Positions 3,568 to 64,000 of a stretch of DNA of 64,000 nt are shown here, piece by piece. The notes beneath the pieces are model-generated. The model was not told the DNA's origin. It saw only the letters and a list, made by a program, of their open reading frames with translations, and ran no database searches. A program made the translations under genes and the position numbers. The DNA lies in assembly GCA_965219415.1 (NCBI GenBank), contig CBDCNP010000002.1:2912001-2976000 (forward strand), read 5' to 3'. The stretch comes from Candidatus Marinacidobacterales bacterium (lineage in GTDB: Bacteria; Acidobacteriota; Vicinamibacteria; Marinacidobacterales; DATDRI01). How positions within the stretch are numbered: the stretch's first letter is position 1; every line of letters begins with the position of its first letter.

Positions 3568-3570
3568 AGC

Positions 3571-44725: not shown

Positions 44726-44752
44726 ATTTGTCGTAAGTACTCGCCGTGCCCC

Positions 44753-47290: not shown

Positions 47291-47345
47291 GATCAAGGCG
47301 GAATCAACGACGGATCGAGTTTTTGCAGCGCACAGGCGTTGGCGC

Positions 47346-47618
47346 ATGAATCACGTTCGTGCTGTGGTAAACTCCGGTCCGTTGATGCTACTGGTTGCCA
47401 GTCTGATCGATGCCTACTCAGTCATCGTGTTCGTCGCGGCGATCCTCAGCTGGCTTCATCTCCCGCCGAGCGTCCAGGTGGTTCGCATCGCCAGGATGTT
47501 GACCGAGCCGGCTCTGGCGCCGATTCGCAGGCTGGTGCCACCGAAGGGGAGGATCGACTTCTCGCCGTTGATTCTGCTGGTCCTCCTTCAGGTTCTGGGG
47601 CTCGTCGCGTTGGTCTAA
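47346..47618 (+). CDS. YggT-family membrane protein
   Basis: AILSW...LTEPALAPIRRLVP..GRIDFSPLI. Confidence 0.85.
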   Translation: MNHVRAVVNSGPLMLLVASLIDAYSVIVFVAAILSWLHLPPSVQVVRIARMLTEPALAPIRRLVPPKGRIDFSPLILLVLLQVLGLVALV

Positions 47619-47955
47619 GGGACAACGGGGTAAAATTAGTCCACCGGATTCTACGCAGGCGCACGTTCGTCCAATGAGACGCAGCGACGTGTGCCGCCTG
47701 ATCGGGTCGGAGCGTGCCACGCGTTTCGCGTGAGACTACCGCACATGGACGAGGTACACGGCGCGGGACCCCATCCACCTTCGGACCGTCGGGCGCCCTG
47801 TGCCTGTGCCGTGGCGTCCGGCTGCGGCTGCCGGTCCGCGTACGTCGAGATCGAGACGCCGGAAGCTGGTGCCGATCAGCCCACCGCCCCCTTGGTCAAC
47901 CAATGAGATCAGACGACCAGCGAGCGCCGAACGCAGGGCGAGAGAACACTGCGCC

Positions 47956-49311
47956 ATGAGTCACCTGAGCAACCAGTTGCACGAGGACGCCAGAAGGCGG
48001 TTCGAAGAGCTCGGACGGAGTCTACTCGGCCGTGTTGCTACATTCCGAGATCCCCCTTCTCGGGCACGCCCTGCTTTCTCGCCAAATGTCTTCACCGGGC
48101 CACAGCTTACGGACGCAGACATCGACGGCGATGTGCATCTTGGCTGGCGGGACCGCCAAGGGAAGCCAACAGGCATCGCCGTCGCCGAGGCGGGAGGCTT
48201 GCGCACTGGTCTGATCGGACCCGATTACGAGAAGCTGGAGGCCCTCGCGTTGTCGATGGCCAGGGTCCGGCCGTTCAAGTCAACAGCGAGCGTCGAGTTC
48301 ATGCGCACGCAGCTCTTCGAATGGGTGAAAGAGCGCCACCGTGGAGAGGGTTCCGCGGGGTGCGTGGACTACCTCTTGCGGGCGTGGGAGAGCGGGGCGG
48401 CGGAACATCGACTGCTCGTTCCGGTGTCCGACCTTCACGTGCAGTCCCCACTGACGCTCGGCTCGGTTACGGTGTCGACGTTTCCGGAGAGCATCTTCGA
48501 GGAGCTTGAATCCAAGCAGACTCACGGCCCGTCTGCCGAAGCGCATGCTGAGTGGTGTCGGTCGATGCGCAGAGACTTCCAGGGTATCACCGTTGCGGAG
48601 ACGCGCGTTTTCGCAGAACCGATTCGAGCGCAAGAAATCGCCAGTGACCGAGTCGAGTTGGCGGTCGGTGTGCTTCGCTTCTTCACGCCCCCTGGGGTTA
48701 CATCAAGGGTTGCTCGCTGGGGTTACGCACCTCGGCGGATCGACCGGGTCTTCATTACCGACCCTACGGGGAAGTTCTTGAGCACCTCCGAGGCGATCAT
48801 TGACCACCCAGGGACCATGGAACTTAGCGACGACCTGCGTGACATTTTGCTCGATGTCGGCCTCTCGGAAGTTCGCGATATCCTCGCGCGTTCCTCACGA
48901 ACCGACTTCGAGGAGACACTTCTGTTGGGTATGGTCACGTTCGGTCGGGCGGCACTCACGCCAGATCTCAGAGAGAAGATGATCTGGTACTGCGCCGGGT
49001 TGGAGTCGATTCTGCTTCGAGACAGTTCGGAGCCGATTCTTCACAACTTGAGCGAACGATTAGCGATGTTTGCCTATGACACGGTGGAGGAGCGGACGGT
49101 TGCCTTGAAGGAGGTTAAGGCGGCCTATTCACTTCGGTCACGGTTCGTTCATCACGGCGCTGAGATCGAAGAGGGTGAGGTTGTGACCCGATTCGCTCAT
49201 CACGGCCTTCAGGTTTTTCTCCGAATCGCTAAGAATGTCCACCATTTCAGCGGCAAGGTGGAGTTTGTCGAACATATTGACCGCATGAAACTCTCGGGTG
49301 CCTCGCAGTGA
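47956..49311 (+). CDS. HEPN-domain protein (ApeA-like)
   Basis: C-terminal GLESIL...LSERLA...AYSLRSRFVHHG (RxxxxH); ATG at 47956. Confidence 0.72.
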   Translation: MSHLSNQLHEDARRRFEELGRSLLGRVATFRDPPSRARPAFSPNVFTGPQLTDADIDGDVHLGWRDRQGKPTGIAVAEAGGLRTGLIGPDYEKLEALALSMARVRPFKSTASVEFMRTQLFEWVKERHRGEGSAGCVDYLLRAWESGAAEHRLLVPVSDLHVQSPLTLGSVTVSTFPESIFEELESKQTHGPSAEAHAEWCRSMRRDFQGITVAETRVFAEPIRAQEIASDRVELAVGVLRFFTPPGVTSRVARWGYAPRRIDRVFITDPTGKFLSTSEAIIDHPGTMELSDDLRDILLDVGLSEVRDILARSSRTDFEETLLLGMVTFGRAALTPDLREKMIWYCAGLESILLRDSSEPILHNLSERLAMFAYDTVEERTVALKEVKAAYSLRSRFVHHGAEIEEGEVVTRFAHHGLQVFLRIAKNVHHFSGKVEFVEHIDRMKLSGASQ

Positions 49312-49651
49312 CTGCTTTCGCTTGCCAGTTGCCGATTTGGCTTCCGTCGGTTCACTCAGTGCCTCAGTCAGCTAGTTCGCTCTCCGTCTATCCCCGTCCT
49401 GTGCCAAAACTCGGCCCAGCCGGCATCGACGAAAGAACTGCGCCTCTCGAAATCAGGCTAAAACTCTAAGCACGCGAACAGGTTACGCGGCGGCCGCCAA
49501 CACTTGACTGCGGAAGCACCCATCGGTGCATCGGTTGCGTGTCCTTCATCGGTGCTTCCGCCATCAAGTGATGGAATGGACTCCTCCACTGACATAGACG
49601 GCATCGATGTGCCAAAGTCAGTCGAATACGCATCGAAAAGGAGGAGTCCAA

Positions 49652-50683
49652 ATGAAAGATACGACAATCGCTGTGGATCTTGCAAAGAACGTCTTCGAGA
49701 TTGCCATCTCGGGAGAAGCGGGGAAGGTGTCCAAGCAACTCCGTGTGAGTCGACCCAAATTGGTGTCGTTCTTTGCCAAACAGAGCGCTGCCACCGTGCT
49801 TCTCGAAGCCTGCGGCTCGGCTCACTTCTGGGCAAGGACGTTCCGAAGGTTGGGACACGACGTCGTCCTGCTCCCACCTCACCTCGTGAGGCCGTATCGA
49901 CGCGGGAGCAAGAACGACCGCGCCGACACGAAGGCGTTGCTCGAGGCCTACAGGAACGAGGAGCTTCTTCCCGTACCCATCAAGTCCGTGCACCAGCACA
50001 CCCTCGCTGCGCTCCATCGCCTGCGCTCAGGATGGCTCTCCACACGGACCGCACGCATCAATGCCGTACGCGGGCTCCTGCGCGAACTCGGATTCATCAT
50101 CCCAAAGGGCGCTCACTTCGTCGTGCCCGCCCTCTTCGAACTCGTCGAAGACGCTGATTCTGATTTGCCCGACGTGCTCCGTTCGCATCTCCGTGATGCC
50201 TGCTCCGAGATTCGAGAACTCAAGGACAAGTGCGCTAGCATCGAGCACGAGCTCAAGGCGCTCACCAAGCAGCTTCCTGAAGTCCAACGACTTCTCGCCA
50301 TTCCCGGCATCGGACTTCTGGCCGCGACCGCCATCGTGGGCTTCGTCGGCGATCTTCGCCGCTTCCCATCGGGGCGCCGCTTCTCGAGCTACCTCGGCCT
50401 AGTTCCCAAGGAAAACTCCAGTGGCGACATTCGCCGCCTCGGACGCATCACCAAGCGTGGCGACTCCTACCTCCGTATGCTCCTCACCCAGGGCGGGCGC
50501 GCCGTGCTCCGCGCGGCGAACGTCAGCAAGAGCCCGCCCGACAAGCTCCGCGCCTGGGCTCGGAAGGTCCACCGCTCGCGGGGACACAACAAGGCCGTGA
50601 TTGCTGTCGCCAACAAACTCGCCCGGATCGTCTGGGCCGTCTCCACCCGCGAGAGTGAATTCCAGTCGCCGGTGGCCGCTTAG
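49652..50683 (+). CDS. IS110 DEDD recombinase
   Basis: AVDLAK, EACG, KNDRAD, IPGIG, SYLGLVPKENSSG, AVANKLAR; AGGAGG RBS. Confidence 0.93.
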   Translation: MKDTTIAVDLAKNVFEIAISGEAGKVSKQLRVSRPKLVSFFAKQSAATVLLEACGSAHFWARTFRRLGHDVVLLPPHLVRPYRRGSKNDRADTKALLEAYRNEELLPVPIKSVHQHTLAALHRLRSGWLSTRTARINAVRGLLRELGFIIPKGAHFVVPALFELVEDADSDLPDVLRSHLRDACSEIRELKDKCASIEHELKALTKQLPEVQRLLAIPGIGLLAATAIVGFVGDLRRFPSGRRFSSYLGLVPKENSSGDIRRLGRITKRGDSYLRMLLTQGGRAVLRAANVSKSPPDKLRAWARKVHRSRGHNKAVIAVANKLARIVWAVSTRESEFQSPVAA

Positions 50684-50729
50684 ATTTAGAGGCTCCACTT
50701 TCGTGTTTTCCTTTTTCCCTTCCAAAAGA

Positions 50730-50915
50730 GGCTGCGACGATACCCATCCAACTGATGGCGTACCGGTCGGACCGGCGCGGGGTCAAGCCAATAGCAACAC
50801 TGGCCCTAAGAGGTCGTTCAAAGTGATTGGCTCCTCGCGCGCGGATTTTCCATCATGGCCCGGAGCACCCAAGACGCTCCTCACTGAGGCCGAAGATACG
50901 TTTGCAGTCTGACCC
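50730..50915 (+). ncRNA. Putative bridge RNA/seekRNA of the IS1111 element
   Basis: Contains TAGCAACAC (reverse complement of target GTGTTGCTA), CAAAGTG, TTCCATCAT (reverse complement of donor junction ATGATGGAA) and AGATACG. Boundaries are approximate. Confidence 0.65.
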
Positions 50916-51353
50916 ACTCGTCACGACGCGATGGATGCGCAGCTTCGATGGAAGATTTATTAAGAAAGGGGCGTGACTAGAAAGAAAGGGGCTTGACTAG
51001 AGGAGTCCAGATATGTTGCTACGCCGTATTTTGAATGCTAATGTCAGCTGGCCTGCCTGTGTCGGCGAACGCCATTAATAAGGATGTCGGCGTGCACACG
51101 AAGGTGTCCCTGAACGTCAGGCACCGTGTGGCCAGCCCAGCCCCGCATCGCCGAAAGAACTGCGTCTCCCGAAATCAGGCTCAAACTCTAGCACACGAGC
51201 GGGTTACGCGGCAGCCACCAACACTTGATTGCGGAAGCACCACCGATTCGAGGGGCGCGCGATCTGGCTGCCGAAGACTGAGGCCGAGCGACCCAATCGA
51301 GAGTTTCTTGAATGGCACGGCGACAGTGTCTTTCGAGGGTGAGGGAACATGCC

Positions 51354-52067
51354 ATGACTTGGATTGCTGGCGTCGATGGCTGCAAGGCAGGCTGGGTCGT
51401 CGTCCGGCTCGAGCTGGATTCTCGTAGCATAGCGATTGACGTCGTGGACGGGATCTCCGTGGTTCTCGACTCGGAGAACCCGCCCGAGATTCTGTGTATC
51501 GATGTTCCGATCGGACTTCTGGACGAGGCGGTTCGTGGGGGGCGAGAGTGCGACAAAGCGGCGAGAAAACTTCTTGGAAGCCCTCGTTCGAGTAGCGTCT
51601 TTTCGGCTCCAGCACGCCCGGCTCTCAAGGGCCGAAGCTTCGAGGAAGCGCTTCGTCTGAATCGCGAATCGTCCGCGCACGCCGTGGGTATCAGTCAACA
51701 GTGCTTCGGTATCATTCCTAAGATTCGGGAAGTCGACGACTACATGACTCCTGAACTGCAGGGGCGGGTTGTTGAGGTCCATCCCGAGCTGGTCTTTTAC
51801 GAAATGAGTGGTGGCAAATCGGTCAAAGAGGGCAAGAAGTCCAAAGGGGGCCTTGCACATCGGCTGGAGTTGTTGGCAGAGGCTTTCGACTTCAACGCGT
51901 CGGAGCTAGTGGAGAATCACCGGAGCTCGAAAGTGGCTCGGGACGATATCGTGGACGCAATGGCCGCGTGTTGGACCGCGGAGCGCATTTTGAAAGGGGA
52001 AGAGGTCCGCGTGCCCAACGAGCCCGTTCTGGATTCGAAAGGGTTGCTGATGGAAATCGTGCGCTAG
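51354..52067 (+). CDS. DUF429 (RNase H-like predicted nuclease) protein
   Basis: AGVDGCKAGW, IDVPIGL, RECD..AR, EVHPELVF, DDIVDA. Confidence 0.85.
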   Translation: MTWIAGVDGCKAGWVVVRLELDSRSIAIDVVDGISVVLDSENPPEILCIDVPIGLLDEAVRGGRECDKAARKLLGSPRSSSVFSAPARPALKGRSFEEALRLNRESSAHAVGISQQCFGIIPKIREVDDYMTPELQGRVVEVHPELVFYEMSGGKSVKEGKKSKGGLAHRLELLAEAFDFNASELVENHRSSKVARDDIVDAMAACWTAERILKGEEVRVPNEPVLDSKGLLMEIVR

Positions 52068-52079
52068 TCTCCTTCAGTC

Positions 52080-52925
52080 CTACTCTCCCGCGATAGTCTC
52101 CGCGAGCCACGCTGTTAACTCGGGGTAGACCGCAAGGTCGAGGACGAACTCTTGCCCTTTTGCGACGACACTCAGATGAGCGCGTTGGCCCTTCAGCGTC
52201 CAACGGTCTAATGAGCCGTGATACGTCAAAGGAGGTCGTCCGCTCGGTAGGAACCCGCTGGGCAAGGACCATTCCGAGGCATTCTTCGCCCCTTGCGCGG
52301 TTAGGCGTCGCTTGTCCGAGGCGAATTCGAAAACGCCAAACCCGCGAATCGCGCCTACATCTACGCCTGGCAACGAGAGTGCCTTATTCGCGACGTAGAG
52401 CGTGTTCGTCGGATCTGGCGGGAATGCTAGGTGAGGATGGGCTTGGGCCCATCGCCACTCGCTACCACCGCTACGAACGACGTCGTCGACTGGAGCTACG
52501 TCGCCGACCTGCAGCCAGCCCCAAACATGATGTTCTGGCCGTCCCAATTTCCTCAACTCGTCGTCTACTGGCTGAAACGAGCCCCAGAAGAGGAAGACGT
52601 CGCCAACGCCGACGCCTTGATTTCGAAGGTGACCTTGAGCGGTTCTGTGTTGACCCAACGTTGCCCGCCATCCTGGATTTCGAGGAGCTAGGTTTCTCGC
52701 AAGATCTGGGTCGATGTGTGCGCGATAGTCGCTTCTCTGTTTGCCGCGAGTCAGTTTTGCGACGACGTCTCCAAGGTTGCGCCCGCGCCAGGTCAGGTCT
52801 TTGTAGCGCACCGGCGAACGCTTGTCCGGGATCGGAAGGGAGATCATCGAGCCGTCCGGGAAAATGGGACTCGGGCATCCGCCGCTCGACGAGTCGAATC
52901 CCTTCCGGCTCAAGATTAGCCGCAT
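52080..52925 (-). CDS. Nmad3 (nucleotide-modification-associated domain 3) protein
   Basis: MRLILSRKGFDSSSGGCPSPI.PDG..SLPIP, H.DPD, GDVFLFWG, HPH, GQEFV. Confidence 0.8.
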   Translation of the reverse strand: MRLILSRKGFDSSSGGCPSPIFPDGSMISLPIPDKRSPVRYKDLTWRGRNLGDVVAKLTRGKQRSDYRAHIDPDLARNLAPRNPGWRATLGQHRTAQGHLRNQGVGVGDVFLFWGSFQPVDDELRKLGRPEHHVWGWLQVGDVAPVDDVVRSGGSEWRWAQAHPHLAFPPDPTNTLYVANKALSLPGVDVGAIRGFGVFEFASDKRRLTAQGAKNASEWSLPSGFLPSGRPPLTYHGSLDRWTLKGQRAHLSVVAKGQEFVLDLAVYPELTAWLAETIAGE

Positions 52926-53542
52926 CGCGTCTTTCCCGGTTGCCAGGAGGTGTCGTCCGTGGGCCAGTGCCTCGGTTGGCCCCGAATACCTTGTGGTCGA
53001 GCTTTCAAAAAATCGAGGAGAGCCGACTTCTCCTCATCAGTGAAGTTCACGCGGTTGAACCGAGCGGGCGGTTGAAAGGCGACGTGCGCGGGAAACGGCA
53101 CAGCATCTCCGCCGTAGTAGCAGAACCGTTTCGCGACCAGGACACGCTCGCCGTTGAGGTCGTGGGCCATTCCCCTTTTGTCCTCGCGGTCGTTCTTGTG
53201 ATCCCAATGCTGCGACCGAAGTTGTCGGAAATCGCCGTCGCCTATTGGTGCGTAACAGTTGTCGCCGCATTTATCCACGATTGGTGCTCCTTTGCGCCAA
53301 CGCGGACGCTTGGACCTGAATCTGCGATCCGACCAATACTCTTCGAACGTAAGCGACTCATCCATCCTCATGGCATAAGCGAGATGGTTGTCGAGCTTCC
53401 TCGGCGTAATTCCGACGATCCAGTCTCCTGGACGCGCCTTTCGCCGGATGGCGGGCTTGCAGCACGCGAGCGTGCACCAGCCAAAGAACGGATTCGGCGC
53501 GAAGCCTGAGTCGGCTTTGAGAATGTACGCGTAGATACGCAC
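52916..53542 (-). CDS. Nmad2 (nucleotide-modification-associated domain 2) protein
   Basis: RIYAYILKADSGFAPNPFFGWCTLACCKPAIRR..GDWIVG, GDNCY, VLV...F.YYG; GTG at 53542; overlaps the Nmad3 start. Confidence 0.8.
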   Translation of the reverse strand: MRIYAYILKADSGFAPNPFFGWCTLACCKPAIRRKARPGDWIVGITPRKLDNHLAYAMRMDESLTFEEYWSDRRFRSKRPRWRKGAPIVDKCGDNCYAPIGDGDFRQLRSQHWDHKNDREDKRGMAHDLNGERVLVAKRFCYYGGDAVPFPAHVAFQPPARFNRVNFTDEEKSALLDFLKARPQGIRGQPRHWPTDDTSWQPGKTRCG

Positions 53543-53776
53543 TAAAGTCGATGCACGAAAATGAATCGATAGAGAACTGCCCAGGCTGGCTGTTGCGCGC
53601 GACTTTTTGGGCCTCGCGATTGTCACGGGATCCCGGAGCGACATCCGCACACGCGGTCTCAGGTTAAGAGAACTTGACTGAATTCTCAACGTGCGCCGAG
53701 AACTAGCAGGGATTAGCCGTTGGATTCCGCGTTGCTGGAGCCGGGGCTCGCGACCTGATATCTGGCCCAGGCTGGC

Positions 53777-54151
53777 TCATGGGCTTAAGTGGGCGTACAT
53801 CCGCACCGGCACCGCTTCAGGCGCCGGAAGTCGCGTCTTGGGCTCAAATCCGGCGGCGCGCATGAGGGCTTTCCATTCCGATCCGTGGGGACGGATGTGT
53901 CGGCCGTGGAGCTCGCGCGCGGCGAGGTGGGCGAACTCGTGGCAGAGGACTTCTTCGAGGAGAGCGTTTTCGGATTCTTCGAGGAAGGCGGCGAGGCGGA
54001 TGAGGCGGCGCTCGGGATAGCAGCGGCCGAGGCTTCGGGTTAGTCGGGGGGACCACTCGATGGTGGTTCGGGTGGCGAGATCGGGGGTGCTCCAGAGGTG
54101 GAGCCAGCGGTCGGCGGAGGTGGTGGCTTCAATCGAAAGGGTGGCTTTCAT
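53777..54151 (-). CDS. SprT-like zinc metalloprotease, C-terminal Zn ribbon apparently missing
   Basis: SPRLTRSLGR, HEFAH, PHGSEWKALM. Confidence 0.7.
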   Translation of the reverse strand: MKATLSIEATTSADRWLHLWSTPDLATRTTIEWSPRLTRSLGRCYPERRLIRLAAFLEESENALLEEVLCHEFAHLAARELHGRHIRPHGSEWKALMRAAGFEPKTRLPAPEAVPVRMYAHLSP

Positions 54152-54309
54152 GGCCTCGGGGCGAAGGCTAACACGAAGGGTAAAGCTCGCGACGTTGGCT
54201 GGTTTCGAGTGCCGTTGCCCGTCCTGTGCCAAAACTCGGCCCTTTCGAAATAGACCATAAATCAGCAGCTTAGCGACTGGGCCAAGGGCCCCTAGGCTTT
54301 ACAGTTACC

Positions 54310-55595
54310 TGTGCATCGTCAAAACTGCTCCGCCCACGAAATCAAGGACTTACGCTCCGCTTGAATTCCGGGCCGAAGACGGCGAAACTCCGCCGCTATG
54401 CTCAACGTTGTTGTCTTCCTCGTCTCACTTGGCGTCCGTGCCATTCGGGCGATGTGTCGGCGCCGCGCCGACCTGGTGTTGGAGAACGTCGCTTTGCGGC
54501 AGCAAGTGACGGCGCTGAAGAAAGAGCGCCCACGCCCACCGCTCGACGACACGGAACGGGCTTTCTGGGTTGCCCTTCGAGGTTCGTGGCCCGTGTGGGC
54601 GAGCCGCCTGCTCATCGTCCACGCGGACACCGTAGCCCGTTGGCATCGCGACCGATTCCGACGGTACTGGGCAAAGATCTCGCAGCGCCGCCATCCCGGT
54701 CGGCCTCGGATTGATGCCGAGATTCGTCGCCTCGTCCGCACGATGGCGCAAGACGGCTGGGGGGCGCCACGCATCCATGCTGAGCTCACCAAGCTCGGTT
54801 TCATCATCTCCGAGAGCACGGTGTCGCGATACCTGCCGCGGCGTCCCGCGGAGCCCGACCAGCTGAAACGATGGATGGCTTTCTTGCGCAACCATAAAGA
54901 CGATATCGCCGCCATGGATCTGTTCACCGTGCCCACCGCGTCGCTCCGGCTGCTGTACGGCTTCTTCGTCATCGAGCACGGTCGCCGGCACATCGTTCAC
55001 TTCAACGCCACGTTCCACCCGACGTCTGCTTGGGTTATTCAGCAACTACGCGAGGCGTTTCCCTACGACACCGCTCCGAGATATCTCATCTTCGATCGCG
55101 ACTTCATCTTTAACGCTGCGGTCATCGAGTTCATCAAGGCAACGGGCACAAAACCCGTTCGCACTTCGTTTCGCAGCCCATGGCAAAACGGAACCGCGGA
55201 GCGATGGGTCGGCAGCTGCCGTCGCGAGCTCCTTGAGCACGTCGTGGTTCTCGGTGCATGTCATCTCATCCGGCTCGTGCGAGCTTACATCAGCTACTAT
55301 CATGAGGACCGTTGCCACTTGGGGCTGAACAAGGACACACCGAGCTTGAGAACGGTCACGCACCGACCGTCTCCTACGGCGAAAGTAGTCGCACTGCCGC
55401 GAGTCGGTGGACTGCACCATCGATACGAGTGGCGAGAGGCAGCCTGAGTCAGCTTGGTCGCTCGCGTTACTCGGCTGGTCGCCGAGAAGTTCGTCCTCAG
55501 CACCTTCCCTCGCGCGCTGACCACGCTCTCAAGCATGGGCTCGAGGGCGGTCCGGGCCCTAGAGTCCAGTCCCGGATTAATAATGATGATGGACA
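54310..55595 (+). mobile_element. IS481-like (rve) IS, copy 2; transposase 54398-55447
   Basis: Near-identical to 41346-42631, in opposite orientation. Confidence 0.9.
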
Positions 55596-55617
55596 AGTTG
55601 CGCCGTCAGTCGGGGGA

Positions 55618-56907
55618 TTAGTTAGTTAACGGGCTCTTCACGATCTTCCCGCCTTTCATCACGAAGGCCACGTCCTGTAAGGCCCGAATATCGGCGAGCG
55701 GGTCGCTGCGAACGGCGATCAAGTCCGCCTGCAATCCTGGTTTGATGGCGCCGATCGTATCTTCGAGACGCAGAAGCTCGGCGGCGAGAGAGGTGGCGGC
55801 CTTAATGGCCACCATCGGCTCCATGCCCAATCTGACCATGTGAAGAAACTCCACCGCGTTGTCTCCATGCCTGATGGCGCCGGCGTCGGTACCGAAGACG
55901 ATCTTGACGCCCAACTCCATTCCCTTTTGGAAGGCTCTCCGTTGCCGCACTTGAATGCGTTTGAAGAACGCATCTGCCTCTTCCTCCGGCGTTCGAGGTG
56001 CGAAAACGGACAGCGTTGGGCACCAAAAGGTCCCCCGATCCGCCATGAGAGAAAGGATGGATTCGTCGAGTAACATTCCGTGCTCGATTGACCGAACGCC
56101 TCCCAGCACGGAGGCACGTGCGCCGTCTCCACCATAGGCGTGGGCGGCCACGTCCTTCCGAAAGCGACCGGCCTCTTCTACGATCGCGCGGACCTGCTCC
56201 TCGCTCAGTTGAGGAAGCGGATCCATCGTCTCGCGATCGATGTGTCGAAGGGTGCCCGTTGCATATATCTTGATCCAATCCGCGCCGTACTTAATCTGCC
56301 GGCGGACTTCCTTGATCATTTCGTCGGTGGTGTCCGTCATCACCGCGAGTTGCGGAACAAGTTCGTCGATCTCGGGGGCGAGACCGGTGTGGTTCATGTG
56401 ACCACCGGTGATACTGAGGGCAAGCGTGGAGACGAGTAGACGTGGGCCCGGGATGAGGTTCTGGTTGATGGCGTCTCGTATCGCGACGTCTGCGAAGCCC
56501 GCCCCTTCGTTATCCACATCTCGGAGAGTGGTGAAACCTGCTTCGAGCGCTGCCCACGCGGCGGCCGCTCCTTCCAAGGTTCGGAAAGCCACCGACTTGT
56601 TGAGGACCGGGTTGTTCGAGCTGTAGTCCGGGGCGAGGCAGATATGAGTATGACTATCGATCAGGCCGGGTAGCACCGTATAGCCCGAGAGGTCGAGGAC
56701 CTCGGCGTTGGCGGGTGGTCGAACGTTGGCTCCGACGGCACTGATCTTATCCCCTTCCACCAAAATGAGAGCTCCTTCGATCGGCTGGTCGCTCATGCCA
56801 TCGATCAAGCGGTCGGCCCGTATGAGAAGAGGGTGTTCCTCGGAGGCGGCTATGCTCGGCGAGCCGAAAACCGTCAAGATCGCGATCATGGACAGCGCAC
56901 GCTTCAC
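55618..56907 (-). CDS. Secreted amidohydrolase (Xaa-Pro dipeptidase-like)
   Basis: Signal peptide; PGLIDSHTH, GADWIK, AAHAYG, SIEHG, FGTDAG, ADLIAV. Confidence 0.9.
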   Translation of the reverse strand: MKRALSMIAILTVFGSPSIAASEEHPLLIRADRLIDGMSDQPIEGALILVEGDKISAVGANVRPPANAEVLDLSGYTVLPGLIDSHTHICLAPDYSSNNPVLNKSVAFRTLEGAAAAWAALEAGFTTLRDVDNEGAGFADVAIRDAINQNLIPGPRLLVSTLALSITGGHMNHTGLAPEIDELVPQLAVMTDTTDEMIKEVRRQIKYGADWIKIYATGTLRHIDRETMDPLPQLSEEQVRAIVEEAGRFRKDVAAHAYGGDGARASVLGGVRSIEHGMLLDESILSLMADRGTFWCPTLSVFAPRTPEEEADAFFKRIQVRQRRAFQKGMELGVKIVFGTDAGAIRHGDNAVEFLHMVRLGMEPMVAIKAATSLAAELLRLEDTIGAIKPGLQADLIAVRSDPLADIRALQDVAFVMKGGKIVKSPLTN

Positions 56908-57104
56908 GTCTTCCTCCTATCTCTGCATCAGTGCGCGCTCACTCCCCGTGCGCGCGCCCGGCGCCTCGCTCCTCGCTCGGCGCACCCTCCGGCGGCCCAT
57001 GCGGGCCGGGCTCGCTCCGCTCGCAGCAGGCTGCTAGTGCCTCGAGTGCAGGGCTCATTATATGCAAACAGGCCTGTTAGAATATGCTCCCATTGGGTCC
57101 TCGA

Positions 57105-57266
57105 ATGAAAGAGCAGCAAGATCTCTTTAGCTCACGCTGGGGCATTCTGCTTGCCGCCATCGGGATGGCCGTGGGGACGGGCAATATCTGGCGGTTTCCG
57201 CGTGTGGCCGCCGCGAATGGCGGTGGCGCCTTCCTCATCGCCTGGCTGGTTTTCATGTTCGCGTAA
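57105..57266 (+). pseudogene. N-terminal fragment of an NSS-family sodium-dependent transporter
   Basis: FSSRWG.LLAAIGMAVGTGNIWRFP.V..NGGGAF, truncated by an IS5 fragment. Confidence 0.8.
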
Positions 57267-57517
57267 TAGACCCGTTGACCGCCAGGCTTACCGCTCTTGT
57301 CGGCCTTCCAGTTCGCGATTGCCTCCTCGTCAAACCAGACCGTCAAATCGCCCCGGCGGCGCAGCCCTTCGTTGTATTCCGCCCAGTTGGAAACGTGGTA
57401 CTTCTTCTGTTTCGCGTGTTTGTACTGGCTGCGCTTGGGATACTTCATGGTCGAACATTACCTCGGCCACCACCATAGGTAGATTTCGCGCTCAGCCAAG
57501 AGCGGTGCAACAACGCC
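57265..57517 (-). mobile_element. Left-end fragment of the IS5 element at 7131
   Basis: Matches 7131 to about 7383 in reverse complement. Confidence 0.85.
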
Positions 57518-57619
57518 GCCCTGCGGCGCGAAATACCCTGGATTTTGCGCGGATTCCAAGGGCGTCTAAGCTGCTGATTTGTGGGCTATTTCAAAAGGGC
57601 CGAGTTTTGGCACAGGACG

Positions 57620-58009
57620 GGGTCGGCAGCTGCCGTCGCGAGCTCCTTGAGCACGTCGTGGTTCTCGGCGCATGTCATCTCATCCGGCTCGTGCGAGCTT
57701 ACATCAGCTACTATCACGAGGACCGTTGCCACTTGGGGCTGAACAAGGACACACCGAGCTTGAGAGCGGTCACGCACCGACCGTCTCCTACGGCGAAAGT
57801 AGTCGCACTGCCGCGAGTCGGTGGACTGCACCATCGATACGAGTGGCGAGAGGCAGCCTGAGTCAGCTTGGTCGCTCGCGTTACTCGGCTGGTCGCCGAG
57901 AAGTTCGTCCTCAGCACTTTCCCTCGCGCGCTGACCACGCTCTCCAGCATGTGCTCGAGGGCGGTCCGGGCCCTAGAGTCCAGTCCCGGACAAATAATGA
58001 TGATGGACA
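57620..58009 (+). mobile_element. Right-end fragment of the IS481-like element
   Basis: ...GGLHHRYEWREAA followed by the TGATGGACA end. Confidence 0.8.
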
Positions 58010-58123
58010 GGCGTTCCCCTCTGGAGACGGTTGTTTGGCAAACCTAATTCTCAGGCGGGCCAAGGGAGCCGCCGCTACCTCAATTTCAACAATCAGTGGG
58101 ACATCCCCTGTAGGTCGGCCAAG

Positions 58124-59302
58124 TCAACCAAGATGATAGGCAGAGATGACTTCCTCCTTTATCAATCCTCTATGACCGGAACGTGTGGGAGCCAGCAATC
58201 TATCGCTGATCGGGTCGCTGAATCGGTCGAAGAGCGTGAAGCCCTTCTCCTCCAGAATCGTCTGAATAACATCCCAAGTACGAATTCTTGCGCCTCCGAT
58301 AAGGTTGTCTCCGCATACAACCACGAAGCAGGCATTGTGACTCAATGTTTCCTTCACTGCATCGAACGCATTACCCATGTCGTAAAGGTAACGATGGACA
58401 ACTGCGCAAAGCCGAGGAGCGCTAGCCTTTAGGCGCCTCAGCGCTGGTACCAATGCATAGTCTCTCTCAATGGATTCCTGAGGTACTTGCTCCAATAACT
58501 GGCCTCGTTCTGTTCCTACGAAGCGTTCCCGAAGGTCGCTCACTTTAAAGGGCAAGACATCTTCCAATAGATACAACTCAAGCTTGAAGTTTCGGAAGTA
58601 GTCCTGCGCGTTGATGTAAGGCGGAGAGGTTATAGCATGGGAGTGTTTGCCTAGGTCACCAAATCGTCGGCGTGGATCGCAGACATCAGCGCAAACGAAA
58701 CGAGAACGAGCGTTCCCTTTCCAATTGAAACCATAGAGTGCTGAGAGTTGCTCTAATAGTTCGAGGATCGTTCGGTTCGGATCGAAATGCCGGCCAGCTC
58801 TCGAACACCGTGCTTGCCTTGAAATGAAAGGCTTCGGGCTGCGCTGGTCAGCTCTGGAGCAGAGTCTAACCGCGAGTGTGTAACTGAGAAGGATGGCTCT
58901 GCCCTCGGGGCTGTTTCTGAGGGGAACGATCCTACTCGCCGCTCTCAATAGCTCGAACTTATTGAGAGTGCCCTGTGTAAACCAGTAGTCTTTGCCACTC
59001 CAATCAACCGGAAGTGGCCGGATGGATCGCTGTGCCTCCGCGATCCACGTCCTGCCAAGTTCCAGAGCACGAGCGGGATTGAAACCCCTGAGCTTCACGT
59101 AACAGAATAATTCTGAGATCGGATTCAGATCGATGCCGGAAACGGGAAGTCCGGCTTGGTTGGCTGCAACGAGGATCGCGCCCGATCCGCAAAACGGATC
59201 GAGAACGGAATCGGCCCCAGAGGCGTATCGCTGGATTAGACGGTCCGCCAGCTTGGACACCATTTTGGCAGGATAGCGATCCAGTCTCGTGGTCAGCCTC
59301 AC
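58124..59302 (-). CDS. DNA methyltransferase, alpha-class N4-cytosine type
   Basis: RYPAKM, motif I DPFCGSG, GIDLNP, later motif IV TSPPY; GTG at 59302 overlaps the upstream TGA (GTGA). Confidence 0.85.
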   Translation of the reverse strand: MRLTTRLDRYPAKMVSKLADRLIQRYASGADSVLDPFCGSGAILVAANQAGLPVSGIDLNPISELFCYVKLRGFNPARALELGRTWIAEAQRSIRPLPVDWSGKDYWFTQGTLNKFELLRAASRIVPLRNSPEGRAILLSYTLAVRLCSRADQRSPKPFISRQARCSRAGRHFDPNRTILELLEQLSALYGFNWKGNARSRFVCADVCDPRRRFGDLGKHSHAITSPPYINAQDYFRNFKLELYLLEDVLPFKVSDLRERFVGTERGQLLEQVPQESIERDYALVPALRRLKASAPRLCAVVHRYLYDMGNAFDAVKETLSHNACFVVVCGDNLIGGARIRTWDVIQTILEEKGFTLFDRFSDPISDRLLAPTRSGHRGLIKEEVISAYHLG

Positions 59303-60249
59303 CTGTCGTCGGTTGTTTTTAGAATCCAAGTCTCACCGAGTCCTCTGGAATAGAAGGCGTGGTTGTGCCGTAGCGGGCTGGCATAAACGATGGCTGGTGG
59401 ATCGTCTGACTCCCTGATGTAGCTATAGACACCTAGGGTCTGTGGCTTGGTGCCAAGTGGGCAGATGATCCTCGCGAAATCATCTCTCCTAGACTGTCCG
59501 AGAACATTTGTGAGAGTTGTACTTGTGTCGTCTGGATCGAGTGCATCGACCTTGAGGACTGCTTGTTCTTCGACCAAGGCCAGAAGGTCGTGGTTGAACT
59601 GCTCGGTTTTTCCTGTCCAATCTGGCCTGTATGGAGGATGGGGCACTACTAGGGTTGTCTTCATCGGCTGGGTTTGTTCATATACCGCCAACGCCCTATC
59701 ACCTTCATACCCCAAAAACATCATCAAGTGAACAGGCCGACTGAGATCTGGACACGCAGAAAACCCGGGAGTTTGCTGGATGGAAGCGAGTCCGAACGAA
59801 AGCGGGATGTGCTGAGAAACCAGGTAATTTTCTGGCTCACTATACACGACATACAGTCGATCCCAGAGGTCACAGTCATCAAGCCATCTAAGCATCATGA
59901 GCAGATGTCGTTTTGTAAATACGGATATGTCCATCACGACAGCCTTATTGTCGGAACAATTTATAACGTGCTGAAGATGCCGCATGTTGGCGCGGAGGCT
60001 TCTGACCGCGTCCGCTTCGGTGAACTGTAGGACTGTCAACCGAGAGACCATTTTCCGGAATGCGGACTCCATATAGCGATGGTTCTTTTCGCGGATGGGG
60101 TTATAGTCATCGTAGTGGAAGAGGACTACTTCGCTCGGCGACCAACTCTGAGTACGAGACAGAAGGCCCCTGCACCGGTATTCGTGACTAGAACATGTAA
60201 CAAGCACCGCCCCATTGGGCAGGTCCCTTGCTACCAGTTGTTGTCTCAC
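59299..60249 (-). CDS. Hypothetical protein, possibly tandem CARF-like Rossmann domains
   Basis: Two half-repeats: SSHEYRC...DISVFTK and FLGYEGDR...CPLGTK; GTGA overlaps on both sides. Confidence 0.7.
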   Translation of the reverse strand: MRQQLVARDLPNGAVLVTCSSHEYRCRGLLSRTQSWSPSEVVLFHYDDYNPIREKNHRYMESAFRKMVSRLTVLQFTEADAVRSLRANMRHLQHVINCSDNKAVVMDISVFTKRHLLMMLRWLDDCDLWDRLYVVYSEPENYLVSQHIPLSFGLASIQQTPGFSACPDLSRPVHLMMFLGYEGDRALAVYEQTQPMKTTLVVPHPPYRPDWTGKTEQFNHDLLALVEEQAVLKVDALDPDDTSTTLTNVLGQSRRDDFARIICPLGTKPQTLGVYSYIRESDDPPAIVYASPLRHNHAFYSRGLGETWILKTTDDR

Positions 60250-62525
60250 TCGTGGTCTCCCGGTGCGAAGGGAAGGCTATCCCGTGTACTTTTGCTTGTT
60301 CCAGACTTCGCTACGGCGTTCTTCAATTCTTGCACCGCTTTAGCTCTCATGCCGGGTTGAAGCAAGCACTGCAACTGCTGGCATTTTATGTTCGTTCTCC
60401 AGCGGAGGCGTGGGCTAACCTGGAGAACAGGTGCATAGATCCGACAGATATTGAATTCTGCGGGTTGAGGATCGGAGCCATGCTTTGGCTTGAACGCCGG
60501 AAGTCCTTCCTTAGTCTGAAATACTCCCTCGCGTTCCCCAACAGCAAGGATGCACTTCAACTTATCCATGGTTCTGTCCTCCAGCATCTCCGGATCCTTG
60601 AGAGTCAGACGCGCAGCCTCCGGCTCGCTCGTGTGCTTGAGTAGTTTGTGCCGCAGACAGTCACCGAGGTCCAGCAGAAAATACTTGAGTTCTTCACCGT
60701 ATTGCTCGACGTTTCGGCTGAGCGTCGTAAGGTTGTGCTGAGAGACGATATGAACGGCCTTGGACTGTCGGTCAGGTGAGATGGTGAAGGCTCCTTGCGG
60801 GGGAGGATGATCGCCGAAGTCAAGATGGTAGCCCACACTCAAAAATTCCTGAAAGTAGCGGATTACTCCCGAGCTGAGGAGTGCGAGCTCGCTGAATCCT
60901 GCAAACCGTTTTTCGGCGTGGCGTCCGCGCTTTCCAAGAATGACCCGGTAGGTCGCTGCTGTACCGTAGTACGTTCGCCTCTCGTGCTGCCTCTCGTCCG
61001 ATAAATCCGCAAACTCCTCAGGCGTGGTCTTGCTGAGCTTTGCCACTTCTGCCAACCATAAGGTCTCATCGACTTCGGGATCGCGAAGCCGTGGAAGGAG
61101 CTTGTCTACGTCGACCTGCTCTGTTCCTTCAAGCCCAGCCATGTTTGATACGATGTGGCGCAATAGTTCGTAGTAAGCGTTTCGTTCAGACACGTCTTCG
61201 ATGTTGTAGACCAATGGAACTCTTGTGTAGTCGTGGATCTCTTGCAGTTCCTGACCTATCGTGGTTCCAGGGACATCTTCGCTGGCAAGCTTCTTGGCGA
61301 TCTTGACTGAGATATGCGGAGGACCCAGCTTGAGCATGCTGTTGACGATTCGTTTCTGATAGGGGAAAAGATTCTCATACTCATCAAGCAGAATAACGAA
61401 CATTGACTCTTTGAGCGACGGAACGTGTTGGCGAACCAGGTCTATGACGCGTTTGAATTGCTCTAGATCAAGGGTCGCTATCGGGACATGAACGGTTTCA
61501 CCATAAATGAATTTACGGCGAATGAAATTAGCCAGACCCCTGTGCAGTCGCGAGAGTTTTAGTTGTAGTTCGATGAACGAAATGGCTCGACCATCCTTAA
61601 AATCCAACAGTAATTCGTCCGCTTCTTCGCAGAGTCTCCGTTCGACGAACCGATCATGATTGATCAAATCGTGCTCGACGCAGTACGCCAATTCTGAGAA
61701 CAAACTCTCCGTCATCTGCAGAATTAGTTCTTGTGCGGCAACATCTGTGAGGATGCCAATGTCCGTGGTCGGACTTAGGTGTTGGGTTTCGAAGCGGACT
61801 CCTGCATTACAAATTGCCCCTCGGGTTAGCTTCAAGTAGAAACCGAAGCGTTGGGGCGCACATTTTTCATAGGGATTCCGCAGTAGAGAATTACGAGCAC
61901 GTAAGGACAGCAACAGCATTGACTTTCCGGTGCCCCTCGAACCTTCGAGAATGCACGGTTTCATATCCTCGAGAGCCCCAACTTTGAAGGCGTCTGGTAG
62001 CGCGAAGGTCTTTACGTGGAGATCAGGCTGGTTCTCAAAGAACTCAGCTCTAAGGTGGCGAAAAGGATTCTGTGAATTAGGTTTGAAAGCGTCGGCAACC
62101 AAAGACGACATCGTCGGACTGCTGAAGAGTAGGTTGCAGATGTCTTCCACCAACTTGTTGAGAGATGCCTGATCCTCTGGTATTAGCCGTCCATATACTT
62201 TGGGCCCAAGTACGGGCGGTATCTTTGTGTCGTCCAGGCGAACGACAATGCACCGCCCACCATCGTAAGCGACTTGATTCCAAACTGCGGCATTGATTTC
62301 CAGATTCTGCCACGGCGCAGCGCGGGTGTGCATGGAGAAGAGAATGATGACCGCCTTGGCATTCGCGATTCCTTCGTTTATGAAAGCAATGGGGTTGTCG
62401 CCAAGAGCAAGGTCTTGTGTATCGATCTTAGTCTCATGGCCGGCATTGCGTAGGTGTTGTACCAACTCTGTCGCAATTTCCGCATCCGCAGTGGCATGTG
62501 AAACGAAGATGTGCGTGATACTCAT
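60246..62525 (-). CDS. TIR domain fused to an ORC/CDC6-like P-loop ATPase
   Basis: TIR (IFVSHATAD...LALGD...PWQNLEI, catalytic Glu present); Walker A GSRGTGKS, Walker B ILLDEYENL, SSGVIRYF; helical/wHTH-like C-terminus. Confidence 0.85.
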   Translation of the reverse strand: MSITHIFVSHATADAEIATELVQHLRNAGHETKIDTQDLALGDNPIAFINEGIANAKAVIILFSMHTRAAPWQNLEINAAVWNQVAYDGGRCIVVRLDDTKIPPVLGPKVYGRLIPEDQASLNKLVEDICNLLFSSPTMSSLVADAFKPNSQNPFRHLRAEFFENQPDLHVKTFALPDAFKVGALEDMKPCILEGSRGTGKSMLLLSLRARNSLLRNPYEKCAPQRFGFYLKLTRGAICNAGVRFETQHLSPTTDIGILTDVAAQELILQMTESLFSELAYCVEHDLINHDRFVERRLCEEADELLLDFKDGRAISFIELQLKLSRLHRGLANFIRRKFIYGETVHVPIATLDLEQFKRVIDLVRQHVPSLKESMFVILLDEYENLFPYQKRIVNSMLKLGPPHISVKIAKKLASEDVPGTTIGQELQEIHDYTRVPLVYNIEDVSERNAYYELLRHIVSNMAGLEGTEQVDVDKLLPRLRDPEVDETLWLAEVAKLSKTTPEEFADLSDERQHERRTYYGTAATYRVILGKRGRHAEKRFAGFSELALLSSGVIRYFQEFLSVGYHLDFGDHPPPQGAFTISPDRQSKAVHIVSQHNLTTLSRNVEQYGEELKYFLLDLGDCLRHKLLKHTSEPEAARLTLKDPEMLEDRTMDKLKCILAVGEREGVFQTKEGLPAFKPKHGSDPQPAEFNICRIYAPVLQVSPRLRWRTNIKCQQLQCLLQPGMRAKAVQELKNAVAKSGTSKSTRDSLPFAPGDHE

Positions 62526-62545: not shown

Positions 62546-63632
62546 TGACCTTGCCCAGGAGAAGTGGGCAGGTTGATTATCTCGCATGAGCAGTTTTGGG
62601 GTCATGAATCCGTTCGAACACCATTGGGCTGTTGTAATCGAGTGACGAGTGGAGTCGACACGGATTGTAGAACCCCTCGATGTAGCTCGCAACCGCGTCT
62701 TTGGCCATACGTCGTGTTGGCCAACTACGTCGGTGGAGGAGCTCAGTCTTGAGCGTGCCGAAGAAGCTCTCGGTCACGGCGTTGTCCCAGCAATCACCCT
62801 TGCGGCTCATCGAGCACGGCCTAGTAGGTCGCAGCCGCGTATTGAGTGCCACGGTCTGAATGATGCACCAAGCCACTTTCCGACAGGCGGCGCCCCAAGG
62901 CCATGTGAAGCGCCTTGAGAGCAAGCTCCGCGCGCAGGTGGGGCTGCATCGCCCAGCCGACAATACGACGCGAGAACAGATCGAGGATAACTGCCAAGTA
63001 GAGCCAGCCTTCCCTAGTACGGATGAGGGTTATGTCCGTTACCAAAACTGGTTCGGTCGTTCGGCTTCGAAGTTCCGGCCGAGCACGTTGGGTGCGATAG
63101 GGTGATCGTGCTTGCTGTTGGTCGTGCGGCGAAAACGCTTGCTAGGCAGGCCCTGCAGGCCCATCTCACGCATCAGCCGTGCCACTTGCTGCTTGCCCAC
63201 CTCGACGTTTCCCCTTCAAGCTGGCGACGTACACGCTCCCTGCCGTAGGTACCACGGCTATGGGTGTGGACCGCTTGGTTGCGCAGCTTCAGTTTCCCAT
63301 CCTCACGCTGTCGCTTGCTGGGCGCGCGCTTCATCTGAGCGTAGTAGCCGCTGGTCTATACCCTCAGGACTCGGCACATCACCCGCACCGGGTAGTTGGC
63401 CCGCTCCGCATGAATGAACTTAAATCTCATTCGCCTTCCTTTTTAATATTTCTCGCTCTTGCTCCAACGTACGCACTCGACGCCGTAGCGAACGGAGCTC
63501 ATCACGTTCCGCCGTCGTCAGAACCTCGCGTGGACCTTTACCTTGATCAACTTTGTATTGTTTCACCCAGTTTCGAAGGGCTGATTCCGTCAGGTCCGGT
63601 TTCTTAGTGATCTGGCCGATGCTGCGCTCGCC
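62546..63632 (-). mobile_element. Degenerate copy of the IS3 element at 45238
   Basis: Same IR (TGACCTTGCCCAGG); internal deletions and stops; left part cut by another IS end at 63633. Confidence 0.85.
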
Positions 63633-64000
63633 CGGCTGGTCAAAATACTCGAACGCCCAGCGGGTCAGCAATTTGCACCTTCGCAAAGACCGCTTGAATC
63701 CCGTGAGGTCAAAATACTCATGCGGCTTCCCGATGGTAGAAACGTAGCAACCCGCCAAGCCGTTCACGGGAGCGCACCTTGCGCTCGGACTGAGGTAACG
63801 GGTCGCTGGCTGGGAACAGCAGCAGATTCTCCTTGCCTTGATGATTCCTCTCGTGGTGATAGTAGACGACGTACTCCCTAAGCGCATGACGGAGCGACTT
63901 CTCGCCGAACAGGATGAGCTTCGAGAGACATTCCTCTTTGACTGACTTCACCCAGCGCTCCGCGAACGAGTTCAAATCCAGGCTCCGTGCGGGCAGCTTG
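63633..64000 (-). mobile_element. rve/IS481-like element: right end and transposase C-terminus (runs off the edge)
   Basis: NSFAERWVKSVKEECL...GGLLRFYHREAA (stop at 63718); terminus CGGCTGGTCAAAATACTC. Confidence 0.8.

Follow-up and report, generated by a model that had tools for sequence, protein, structure and literature searches.

TIR domains are known makers of signals in Thoeris, and in the plant receptor RPP1 nucleoside triphosphate (NTP)-dependent oligomerisation assembles the TIR active sites. Among the described systems that come closest to the locus reported here, and as far as the accessible parts of these papers go, a "small family" of kinase-AAA+-CARF-wHTH fusions with an Arg inside the P-loop has been noted (Makarova et al. 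2014; PMC4012209), an operon of a COG1743 methylase, DUF499 and an SWI2/SNF2 helicase-nuclease that includes a CDC6/ORC1-like ATPase has been described (PMC7641849), and BrxB and PglW of BREX have been reported to contain inactive STAND domains (PMC12839542). Here we report on a three-gene cassette in a stretch of 64,000 nucleotides from a Candidatus Marinacidobacterales bacterium (GenBank assembly GCA_965219415.1, contig CBDCNP010000002.1, positions 2,912,001 to 2,976,000; the whole stretch is called the window below), which encodes a TIR domain joined to an ORC/CDC6-like ATPase (gene 1), a tandem CARF protein (gene 2) and an amino-methyltransferase (gene 3). It is quite probable that this is a conflict or defence cassette; we infer its defence function, which is most likely anti-phage, and its trigger.

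Domain composition and coupling of the three genes

The cassette consists of three co-directional minus-strand open reading frames (ORFs), at 60246-62525, 59299-60249 and 58124-59329 in the ORF list of the window. Positions are given in window coordinates, L-numbers denote loci fetched from other genomes or from another contig, and the model collections were PADLOC 2.0 and NCBIfam 20.0. The GTG at 59302 was taken as the functional start of gene 3, because it lies in a GTGA overlap and the homologues begin at an equivalent GTG or ATG, whereas the upstream TTG at 59329 only lengthens the ORF from 392 to 401 amino acids. A preliminary description of the window had listed three minus-strand genes joined by two GTGA start/stop overlaps, and reading of the minus strand confirmed this arrangement. 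Identical 4-nucleotide overlaps were present in several related loci (stop 8004/start 8001 between genes 1 and 2, and stop 8951/start 8948 between genes 2 and 3). The features of the cassette are as follows.

60246..62525, minus strand: gene 1, TIR plus ORC/CDC6-like (STAND-clade) AAA+ ATPase, 759 amino acids (Pfam, AlphaFold2 (AF2) model, Foldseek)
62115..62525, minus strand: TIR domain, gene 1 residues 1-137, with W72-x-x-x-E76 (alignment, VIA-align)
60402..62069, minus strand: ORC-CDC6-like ATPase region, gene 1 residues 153-708, with Walker A GSRGTGKS and Walker B LLDEYEN (Pfam PF24389, alignment)
60246..60249, minus strand: GTGA overlap of the gene 1 stop and the gene 2 start (minus-strand sequence "...gag tga" with "gtg")
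59299..60249, minus strand: gene 2, stand-alone tandem CARF (pseudo-dimer) of "CARF6" type, 316 amino acids (PADLOC, AF2, VIA-align)
59815..60213, minus strand: CARF domain 1, gene 2 residues 13-145 (conservation and predicted secondary structure)
59314..59736, minus strand: CARF domain 2, gene 2 residues 172-312 (conservation and model)
59299..59302, minus strand: GTGA overlap of the gene 2 stop and the gene 3 start (minus-strand sequence "...agg tga" with "gtg")
58124..59302, minus strand: gene 3, N6_N4-family amino-methyltransferase, 392 amino acids (Pfam, PADLOC, invariant motifs)

The N-terminal part of gene 1 matched Pfam TIR_2 (E 3.6e-19, 69.9 bits against a cut-off of 28) and, weakly, ThsB_TIR (22.1 bits against 21.2). 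When the TIR domain alone was searched with VIA-align, it aligned to the TIR structure 4w8h with a Z of 15.0 and a root-mean-square deviation (rmsd) of 2.9 over 124 residues, and the structural matches also listed the TIR domains of AbTir, SARM1 and ThsB and the TIR-SAVED structure 7qqk. The ATPase was matched by PF24389 with an E of 9.9e-50 (170.3 bits against a cut-off of 27), with residues 153-708 corresponding to positions 1-566 of the 571 in the profile. The catalytic motifs are intact. W72 and E76 of the TIR domain are each conserved in at least 90% of 19 aligned homologues, the sole exception being the non-TIR protein of L031, and G195, R197, G198, G200 and K201 (Walker A), D381 and E382 (Walker B) and R556 are invariant among the 19; R197 is an Arg inside the P-loop of the motif GSRGTGKS. 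The W-x-x-x-E glutamate followed by Walker A and B motifs, as proposed in the preliminary description, was thereby borne out by Pfam and by residue conservation.

The best Foldseek match of the whole protein was the resistosome tetramer of RPP1, a plant TIR-type nucleotide-binding leucine-rich repeat receptor (TIR-NLR; 7dfv and 7crc, E 1.6e-5), followed by archaeal Cdc6/ORC, PAB2304, RdrA and CED-4. Cdc6 1fnn (probability 0.95) and ORC2 1w5s (probability 0.94) were aligned over approximately 630-640 columns with a high rmsd. No sensor domain of the leucine-rich repeat (LRR) or tetratricopeptide repeat (TPR) type was found in gene 1 by Pfam. Of the 120 best-matching homologues of gene 1 in the protein collection, for which only generic source names were given, 115 contain both TIR_2 and PF24389. 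The PADLOC matches of gene 1 were confined to the TIR region (PDC-S66 over residues 5-85, ThsB, and Retron-TIR with 36 bits against a cut-off of 600).

Gene 2 was matched by nine PADLOC "CARF6--CARF_CARF_CARF" models below an E of 1e-8, the best at 2.5e-26; no Pfam family exceeded its cut-off, and NCBIfam gave no family. Its AF2 model (predicted local distance difference test (pLDDT) 88.3, predicted template modelling score (pTM) 0.90) contains two CARF domains in one chain and no effector domain. The closest structure in VIA-align was Can1 (6sce), a single-chain double-CARF nuclease, with a Z of 14.2 and an rmsd of 3.7 over 232 residues, and ranks 2-15 were likewise taken by CARF proteins (Z 8.9-12.0). 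Further structural matches were Can2, VC1899, Csa3, Card1, Csm6, Cam1 and Cad1 and then SAVED domains, the latter aligning over approximately 200 residues; Cam1 and Csm6' aligned to residues 171-312 only. The CARF relationship emerged only with VIA-align, because the Foldseek list consisted mainly of generic tandem-Rossmann matches (cation-chloride transporter C-terminal domains and KaiC) with a single CARF match. The assignment of gene 2 as a tandem CARF-like protein, made from the sequence at first, is in agreement with the PADLOC models, the AF2 model and the Can1 match. The label "CARF6" in PADLOC presumably follows the CARF classification of Makarova et al. 2020.

By profile search, the CARF6-like family comprises 2,992 clusters (50% identity) at an E up to 0.001 and 1,416 at an E up to 1e-10. 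The CARF signature consists of a Ser/Thr after strand 1 and [DN]-x-[ST]-x-x-x-[RK] after strand 4, and domain 1 of gene 2 carries the signature residues at both positions, with S20/S21 after strand 15-20 and D107-I-S109-V-F-T-K113 after strand 104-107. D107 is invariant and S21 and K113 are conserved to at least 90% in one alignment (A2), and S109 is invariant and S20 conserved to at least 90% in another (A1, 12 sequences). Domain 2 contains the invariant FLGYEGDR (178-185) and P264-x-G266-T267-(K268)-P269-Q270, in which G266-T267-K268 sits after strand 259-264. Gene 2 would supply a ligand pocket, and the ligand may be of the nucleotide type.

Gene 3 matched Pfam N6_N4_Mtase (49.2 bits against a cut-off of 26.7), and its best full-length matches were REBASE-derived type II methylase models, among which PADLOC MTase_II PDLC03362 covered residues 17-393 of the 401-amino-acid ORF with an E of 4.1e-19. 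In gene 3, approximately 190 residues separate DPFCGSG (motif I) from the later TSPPY (motif IV), and neither motif varies among 18 sequences; together with the Pfam match, this upheld the amino-methyltransferase with motif I before SPPY that had been proposed. The further proposal that gene 3 is an N4-methylcytosine (m4C) enzyme is not established, because the target base cannot be read from SPPY by itself and, in the PDB profile search, the matches to solved N4C, N6A and N2G methylases were all confined to the motif I region.

The motif I region also matched tRNA/rRNA N2-guanine methylases (Trm14, Trm-G10 and RlmKL-like) almost as well as DNA methylases. Furthermore, a block between motifs I and IV (residues 141-180, window 58763-58882, consensus "R.CS.AD.RSPKPFIS") shows a mean pairwise identity of 0.63, compared with 0.47 for the whole protein and 0.23-0.36 for the neighbouring stretches. 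Both observations could be accommodated if the substrate of gene 3 were RNA, a protein glutamine or a nucleotide, with the cassette acting as a regulatory or stress module and not in methylation-gated immunity. We regard this as highly improbable, because the best full-length matches are type II methylase models, a beta-class PF01555 methylase that is non-orthologous to gene 3 takes the equivalent place in the related locus L049, and the methylase-less cassette of L031 adjoins a C5 cytosine methylase and an AlwI-like nuclease. Gene 3 probably acts on DNA. A separate candidate, an unusually conserved target-recognition region in gene 3, was dropped, as one block (141-180) is conserved and the adjoining stretches are variable.

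No nuclease is encoded in the cassette or adjoining it in the window, as had been noted for the surroundings of gene 3, and no nuclease domain was detected in the three proteins by Pfam. Promoter and terminator scans of the cassette gave results no better than shuffles.

To examine the relation between genes 1 and 2, a complex was predicted from gene 1 residues 141-759 and gene 2. The median score was 0.75, a level attained by 58 of 80 solved complexes and by 2 of 110 mismatched pairs, and the best of three controls scored 0.00. The runs shared at least 73% of contacts, with a partner pLDDT of at least 79. The predicted interface contains the conserved gene 2 linker 152-173; its listed residues do not include those of the CARF motifs. 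Taken together, the complex prediction, the start/stop overlaps and the natural fusions described below agree and support the model that gene 2 binds the ATPase of gene 1. To our knowledge, no structure of a like complex has been solved.

Co-inheritance, exchange of N-termini and mobility

For the comparison across genomes, 31 gene 2 loci were drawn from reference (species-representative) genomes, and the partner genes were scored by tblastn. The loci are from bacteria (Latescibacterota, Nitrospirales, Vicinamibacterales, Bryobacterales, Holophagales, Verrucomicrobiae, Planctomycetes, Brocadiia, Hydrogenedentota and Spirochaetia) and archaea (Methanoregula, another Methanobacteriota archaeon and Nitrosopumilus). 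The three genes are strictly co-inherited: the gene 1 ATPase is the immediate upstream neighbour of gene 2 in 29 loci (L009 and L012 lack it), gene 3 is located downstream in 30 (with no copy in L031, fragments in L009 and two pieces in L011 and L012), and all three were detected in 28 of the 31. The identities of the three genes fall in parallel across the loci, from approximately 80% to approximately 30%. The three-gene synteny of homologues on which the preliminary description depended was found to hold. A TIR part was evident by tblastn in 24 of the 31 loci. The archaeal TIR was missed by tblastn, and a Pfam scan of two of the three Methanoregula-type proteins (L028 and L029) added TIR_2 in both, with the third (L030) aligning like L029. 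The Nitrosopumilus locus (L031, 5774-12029) contains an ATPase with a 137-amino-acid non-TIR N-terminus and a CARF gene, without the cassette methylase.

In the two loci without gene 1, gene 2 follows a 2232-amino-acid STAND/NACHT-like protein (L009, 1048-8951) and a 717-amino-acid HATPase_c_3 (GHKL) protein (L012, 5567-8948), respectively, and the gene 3 remnants are broken.

The ATPase family is wider than the TIR type. In a sample of 401 genomes from the phylum of the window, 11 carried PF24389 ATPases. With one unpublished genome set aside, 10 regions from these carriers were examined, of which L052 seems to be locus L005 again and is not independent. A CARF6-like ORF directly follows the ATPase in 7 of the 10 regions and is fused to it in one (L057, 1265 amino acids), and none was detected in the other 2. 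The N-termini are swapped: those of L053, L054 and L055 are kinase-like, all below the Pfam cut-off, and a gene 3-like methylase lies upstream of the kinase-type variants L054, L055 and L058. The last of these is a second cassette in the window's own genome (contig C2, 2305-8238, minus strand), with the order methylase, Pkinase-ATPase interrupted by an IS3-family transposase, and CARF, and its Pkinase domain (48.4 bits) is above the cut-off.

L058, 7114-8238, minus strand: gene 3-like methylase (hidden Markov model (HMM))
L058, ORFs 5853-7130, 4645-5496 and 3364-4599, minus strand: Pkinase plus ORC-CDC6-like ATPase with inserted IS3-family transposase
L058, 2305-3360, minus strand: CARF6-like gene

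The swapped N-termini and the frequent methylase indicate that the core is the pair of ATPase and tandem CARF, of which the TIR version is one variant. A 748-amino-acid DUF4062/NACHT-like protein lies just upstream of the L058 cassette.

The cassette of the window was described at first as more AT-rich than the host genes and as bounded by insertion sequence (IS) remnants, and both statements proved correct. The GC fraction per 500-nucleotide bin was 0.488-0.560 over 58000-62499, compared with 0.578-0.646 over 50000-57999, and transposase fragments lie on both sides.

57077..57919, no strand assigned: IS remnants downstream of the cassette (DDE_Tnp_1_5 fragment and 300-nucleotide repeat)
62577..63999, minus strand: IS3-like and rve_3 transposase fragments upstream of the cassette (Pfam on four short ORFs)

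Downstream, the DDE_Tnp_1_5 fragment occupies 57077-57448, and 57620-57919 is a 300-nucleotide, 99% direct repeat of 55206-55505, the 3' part of an rve_3 transposase gene; upstream, rve, rve_2, rve_3 and HTH_Tnp_1 matches fall on the four short ORFs at 62577-63975. Loci in other phyla are 77-81% identical to the window cassette. Horizontal mobility is the best explanation of the low GC content, the flanking IS remnants and this identity across phyla.

Of the 29 loci in which gene 1 could be assessed, 7 have a broken copy or, in L009 and L012, none; the copy of L025 is cut by the contig end. ISL3 transposases split gene 1 in L005 (5543-7246) and L016 (5258-6892), and two copies of a 481-amino-acid UPF0236 ORF in L006 (6300-7745 and 8901-10346) truncate gene 1 and part gene 2 from gene 3. 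An unassigned 283-amino-acid ORF lies within gene 1 of L014 (5594-6445), and gene 1 of L017 has a frame break, which could be an assembly error, whereas the insertions in the other loci could not. The frequent loss of gene 1 fits a costly effector.

A survey of 105 flanking ORFs of related loci, for which the 25 commonest of 139 families were listed, gave type I specificity subunits, C5 and N6_N4 methylases, Eco57I, RepB and ParA as recurrent families, and single BrxL and DUF7008 genes were also among the flanking ORFs. The flanking genes are not conserved, which indicates that the cassette is self-contained and that its surroundings are variable and partly defence- or mobile-element-like.

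These features raise the possibility that the cassette is a mobile-element module for addiction or exclusion, whose loss would dilute the methyl mark and leave the remaining ATPase-TIR protein to kill the cell. R-M (restriction-modification) systems are known for such post-segregational killing, and the IS remnants on both sides, the low GC content and the 77-81% identity to other phyla are consistent with a module of this kind, as are the combination of a methylase and a potentially lethal effector without a nuclease, the frequent disruption of gene 1 while genes 2 and 3 persist, and RepB and ParA next to some loci (2 of the 105 flanking ORFs each). However, gene 2 had no tblastn match in 72,556 plasmid or 50,697 phage records, and most loci are chromosomal in varied contexts. 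We consider addiction unlikely as the function of the cassette, and it would be compatible with defence, as R-M systems do both.

Elsewhere in the window, 41494-57919 and 62577-63999 are very IS-rich. A 349-amino-acid rve_3 transposase occurs in two copies (41494-42543 and 54398-55447), together with an IS3-type gene (45269-46147) and an IS110-type gene (49607-50683), and a 56-nucleotide inverted repeat, 95% complementary (54218-54273 / 57566-57621), brackets a transposase and an amidohydrolase gene. A 503-amino-acid ORF on the plus strand (47800-49311) matched no Pfam family at an E up to 0.001. The segment 51312-54232 contains DUF429 (51312-52067, plus strand), Nmad3 (52080-52925, minus), Nmad2 (52916-53689, minus) and SprT-like (53777-54232, minus) genes, and the "nucleotide modification associated" domains suggest that this cluster, 4 kb from the cassette, is another nucleic-acid-modification or conflict module.

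Proposed mechanism and possible signals

We tentatively propose that the cassette encodes a TIR effector that is switched by the ATPase, linked to methylation and equipped with a CARF protein as sensor subunit, this particular mechanism being plausible and less firmly held than the defence assignment itself. Gene 1 would be an NLR-like switch, whose ORC/Cdc6-clade AAA+ ATPase would bind and hydrolyse ATP and oligomerise when triggered. Oligomerisation would gather the TIR domains and, by analogy with TIR-NLRs and bacterial TIR effectors, could lead to NAD+ cleavage and hence to cell arrest or death, so that NADase activity is the presumed output of the TIR domain. The double-CARF protein would be a bound regulatory subunit of the ATPase, with the ATPase/CARF complex as sensor and switch and the TIR domain as an exchangeable output module. 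Gene 3 would methylate host nucleic acid, probably DNA, so that self does not trigger the ATPase/CARF sensor. The preliminary description had likewise put forward self-marking by the methyltransferase, licensing of TIR activity by the ATPase and nucleotide sensing by gene 2 as candidate roles.

Several observations weigh against this proposal. The AF2 model of gene 1 is of only moderate confidence (pLDDT 72.1, pTM 0.61), and a DNA-binding domain in gene 1 was not demonstrated, the C-terminal residues 584-740 not having been searched separately and the VIA-align list having been filled by TIR matches. The N-terminal module is absent in L049, L050 and L051, and the core of ATPase and CARF may act without a TIR domain. 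In 5 of the 10 wider-family regions the HMMs and the Pfam scan revealed no methylase of either type, and the L031 cassette has none. The genomic context is weakly defence-like, with no Pfam family in more than 3 of the 105 flanking ORFs. The lack of matches in plasmid and phage records and the matches of the gene 3 motif I region to tRNA/rRNA methylases, both given above, point in the same direction.

With respect to the source of a signal, no signal-making cyclase was found in the cassette by Pfam. Among 32 carrier genomes, many of them metagenome-assembled genomes, a single, Cmr2-type Cas10 model gave matches in 11, of which 7 exceed the cut-off, SMODS gave matches in 8, and neither was present in 18, including the window's own genome, which is 96% complete and had no TIGR02577 or PF18144 match in a search that did not extend to PycC-type cyclases. 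No cas or CD-NTase gene was among the 25 commonest of the 139 families listed for the flanking ORFs. A dependence on a resident cyclic oligoadenylate (cOA) or cyclic dinucleotide (CDN) synthase is unlikely. These results bear on the possibility that the cassette is an ancillary effector, in which gene 2 senses cyclic oligoadenylates or nucleotides from type III CRISPR or CBASS and switches on the TIR-ATPase. The nearest folds of gene 2 are all cOA/CDN sensors (Can1, Can2, Card1, Csm6, Cap5 and TIR-SAVED), as would be expected of such an effector; nevertheless, given the 18 carriers with neither Cas10 nor SMODS and the flank families, we judge it to be quite improbable.

The signal could instead be made within the cassette, in a closed loop resembling Thoeris, with the TIR domain producing an NAD-derived nucleotide and the tandem CARF acting as receptor, buffer or ring nuclease. 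The weak ThsB_TIR match, the lack of any other signal synthase in the cassette, and the conservation of CARF motif residues that are not listed in the predicted interface would all fit such a loop. However, the ATPase and CARF6 pair also occurs with a kinase-like or no N-terminus and as a kinase-ATPase-CARF fusion, and gene 2 has no effector domain for the signal to switch on. Because ATPases of the kinase type and those lacking an effector share this CARF partner, a TIR-made signal cannot be the general CARF ligand. Thus, the idea that the TIR domain makes a signal read by gene 2 is weakened, and we regard the closed loop as distinctly unlikely.

A form of nucleotide-sensing immunity free of any synthase, equally doubtful in our estimation, would be one in which the methylase marks host nucleic acid and the CARF protein reads methylated nucleotides or oligonucleotides from the phage-degraded host genome, or the ATPase/CARF complex recognises incoming DNA by its lack of the mark, and in which either event triggers NLR-like assembly and TIR firing. 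If true, this would explain why a CARF protein, a methylase and an exchangeable effector travel without a cyclase or nuclease, and the cassette would amount to an analogue of TIR-NLRs in prokaryotes, with epigenetic self-marking as its gate.

The cassette occurs in both bacteria and archaea, its gene 2 belongs to a large CARF6-like family, and the CARF ligand and the trigger of the proposed ATPase-switched effector are directly testable. Methylome and genetic tests are made practical by two cultured carriers, Planctomicrobium sp. SH661 (L024) and Prosthecobacter fluviatilis KACC 12649 (L020), whose cassettes seem to be intact.

Comparison with known systems

No named-system model matched the cassette, with PADLOC and NCBIfam reaching only the TIR and generic CARF6 levels for genes 1 and 2. 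A literature search gave no description of the TIR-type operon, and a listing in CARF classification work or supplements is possible. In their accessible parts, PMC7641849, PMC6563490 and PMC11754643 contain nothing describing the TIR-type operon, and a BREX paper and a ParA/HINPO preprint that mention ORC-CDC6-like proteins describe, in the portions available, neither the cassette nor a TIR or CARF partner. The preliminary description knew of no characterised system with this combination. This holds for the combination, which no PADLOC or NCBIfam model or literature match covers, but not for its parts, which are catalogued as CARF6 models, as PF24389 and as the kinase-ATPase-CARF fusion of 2014. 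As far as searched, therefore, the building blocks are already catalogued and the TIR-type trio matches no named system model.

The fusion family of PMC4012209 is a close relative, with, as far as the available text goes, the same ATPase family, an Arg in the P-loop matching R197, and the same CARF6-type partner. The kinase-type relatives are likewise accompanied by a gene 3-like methylase, with one copy in the window's genome. The cassette differs in its TIR N-terminus, its three separate genes and its order ATPase-CARF-methylase, compared with methylase-ATPase-CARF in the kinase type; within its available text, PMC4012209 has 0 occurrences of TIR and mentions no methylase partner.

Among the other methylase-containing systems, the COG1743/DUF499 operon and BREX resemble the cassette in pairing a DNA-type methylase with an ORC/Cdc6-clade P-loop protein. 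The cassette has no helicase, nuclease or PglZ, its ATPase motifs are intact and not degenerate, and TIR and CARF are present in addition. In contrast to R-M systems, its methylase has no paired restriction nuclease. Thoeris shares with it a bacterial TIR domain with a catalytic Glu, in line with the weak ThsB model matches, whereas the cassette and its flanks contain no ThsA (SIR2, Macro or SLOG) gene, and the ATPase and methylase are additional.

With Can1, Can2, Card1 and TIR-SAVED, the cassette has in common a single-chain double CARF, as in Can1, and a TIR output, as in TIR-SAVED; its sensor and TIR are, however, on different polypeptides bridged by the ATPase, and no cyclase is present in the cassette. 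Gene 1 resembles the TIR-NLR/STAND receptors (RPP1 and Avs-type) in carrying an N-terminal TIR on an NTPase of the STAND/ORC clade, but in place of an LRR or TPR sensor, none of which was found, the cassette has a separate tandem-CARF subunit and a methylase. If its function is defence, the cassette would join, without a nuclease or signal synthase, three themes that are normally found in separate systems: epigenetic self-marking as in R-M and BREX, CARF/SAVED nucleotide sensing as in type III CRISPR and CBASS, and an NTPase-switched TIR as in TIR-NLRs and Avs.

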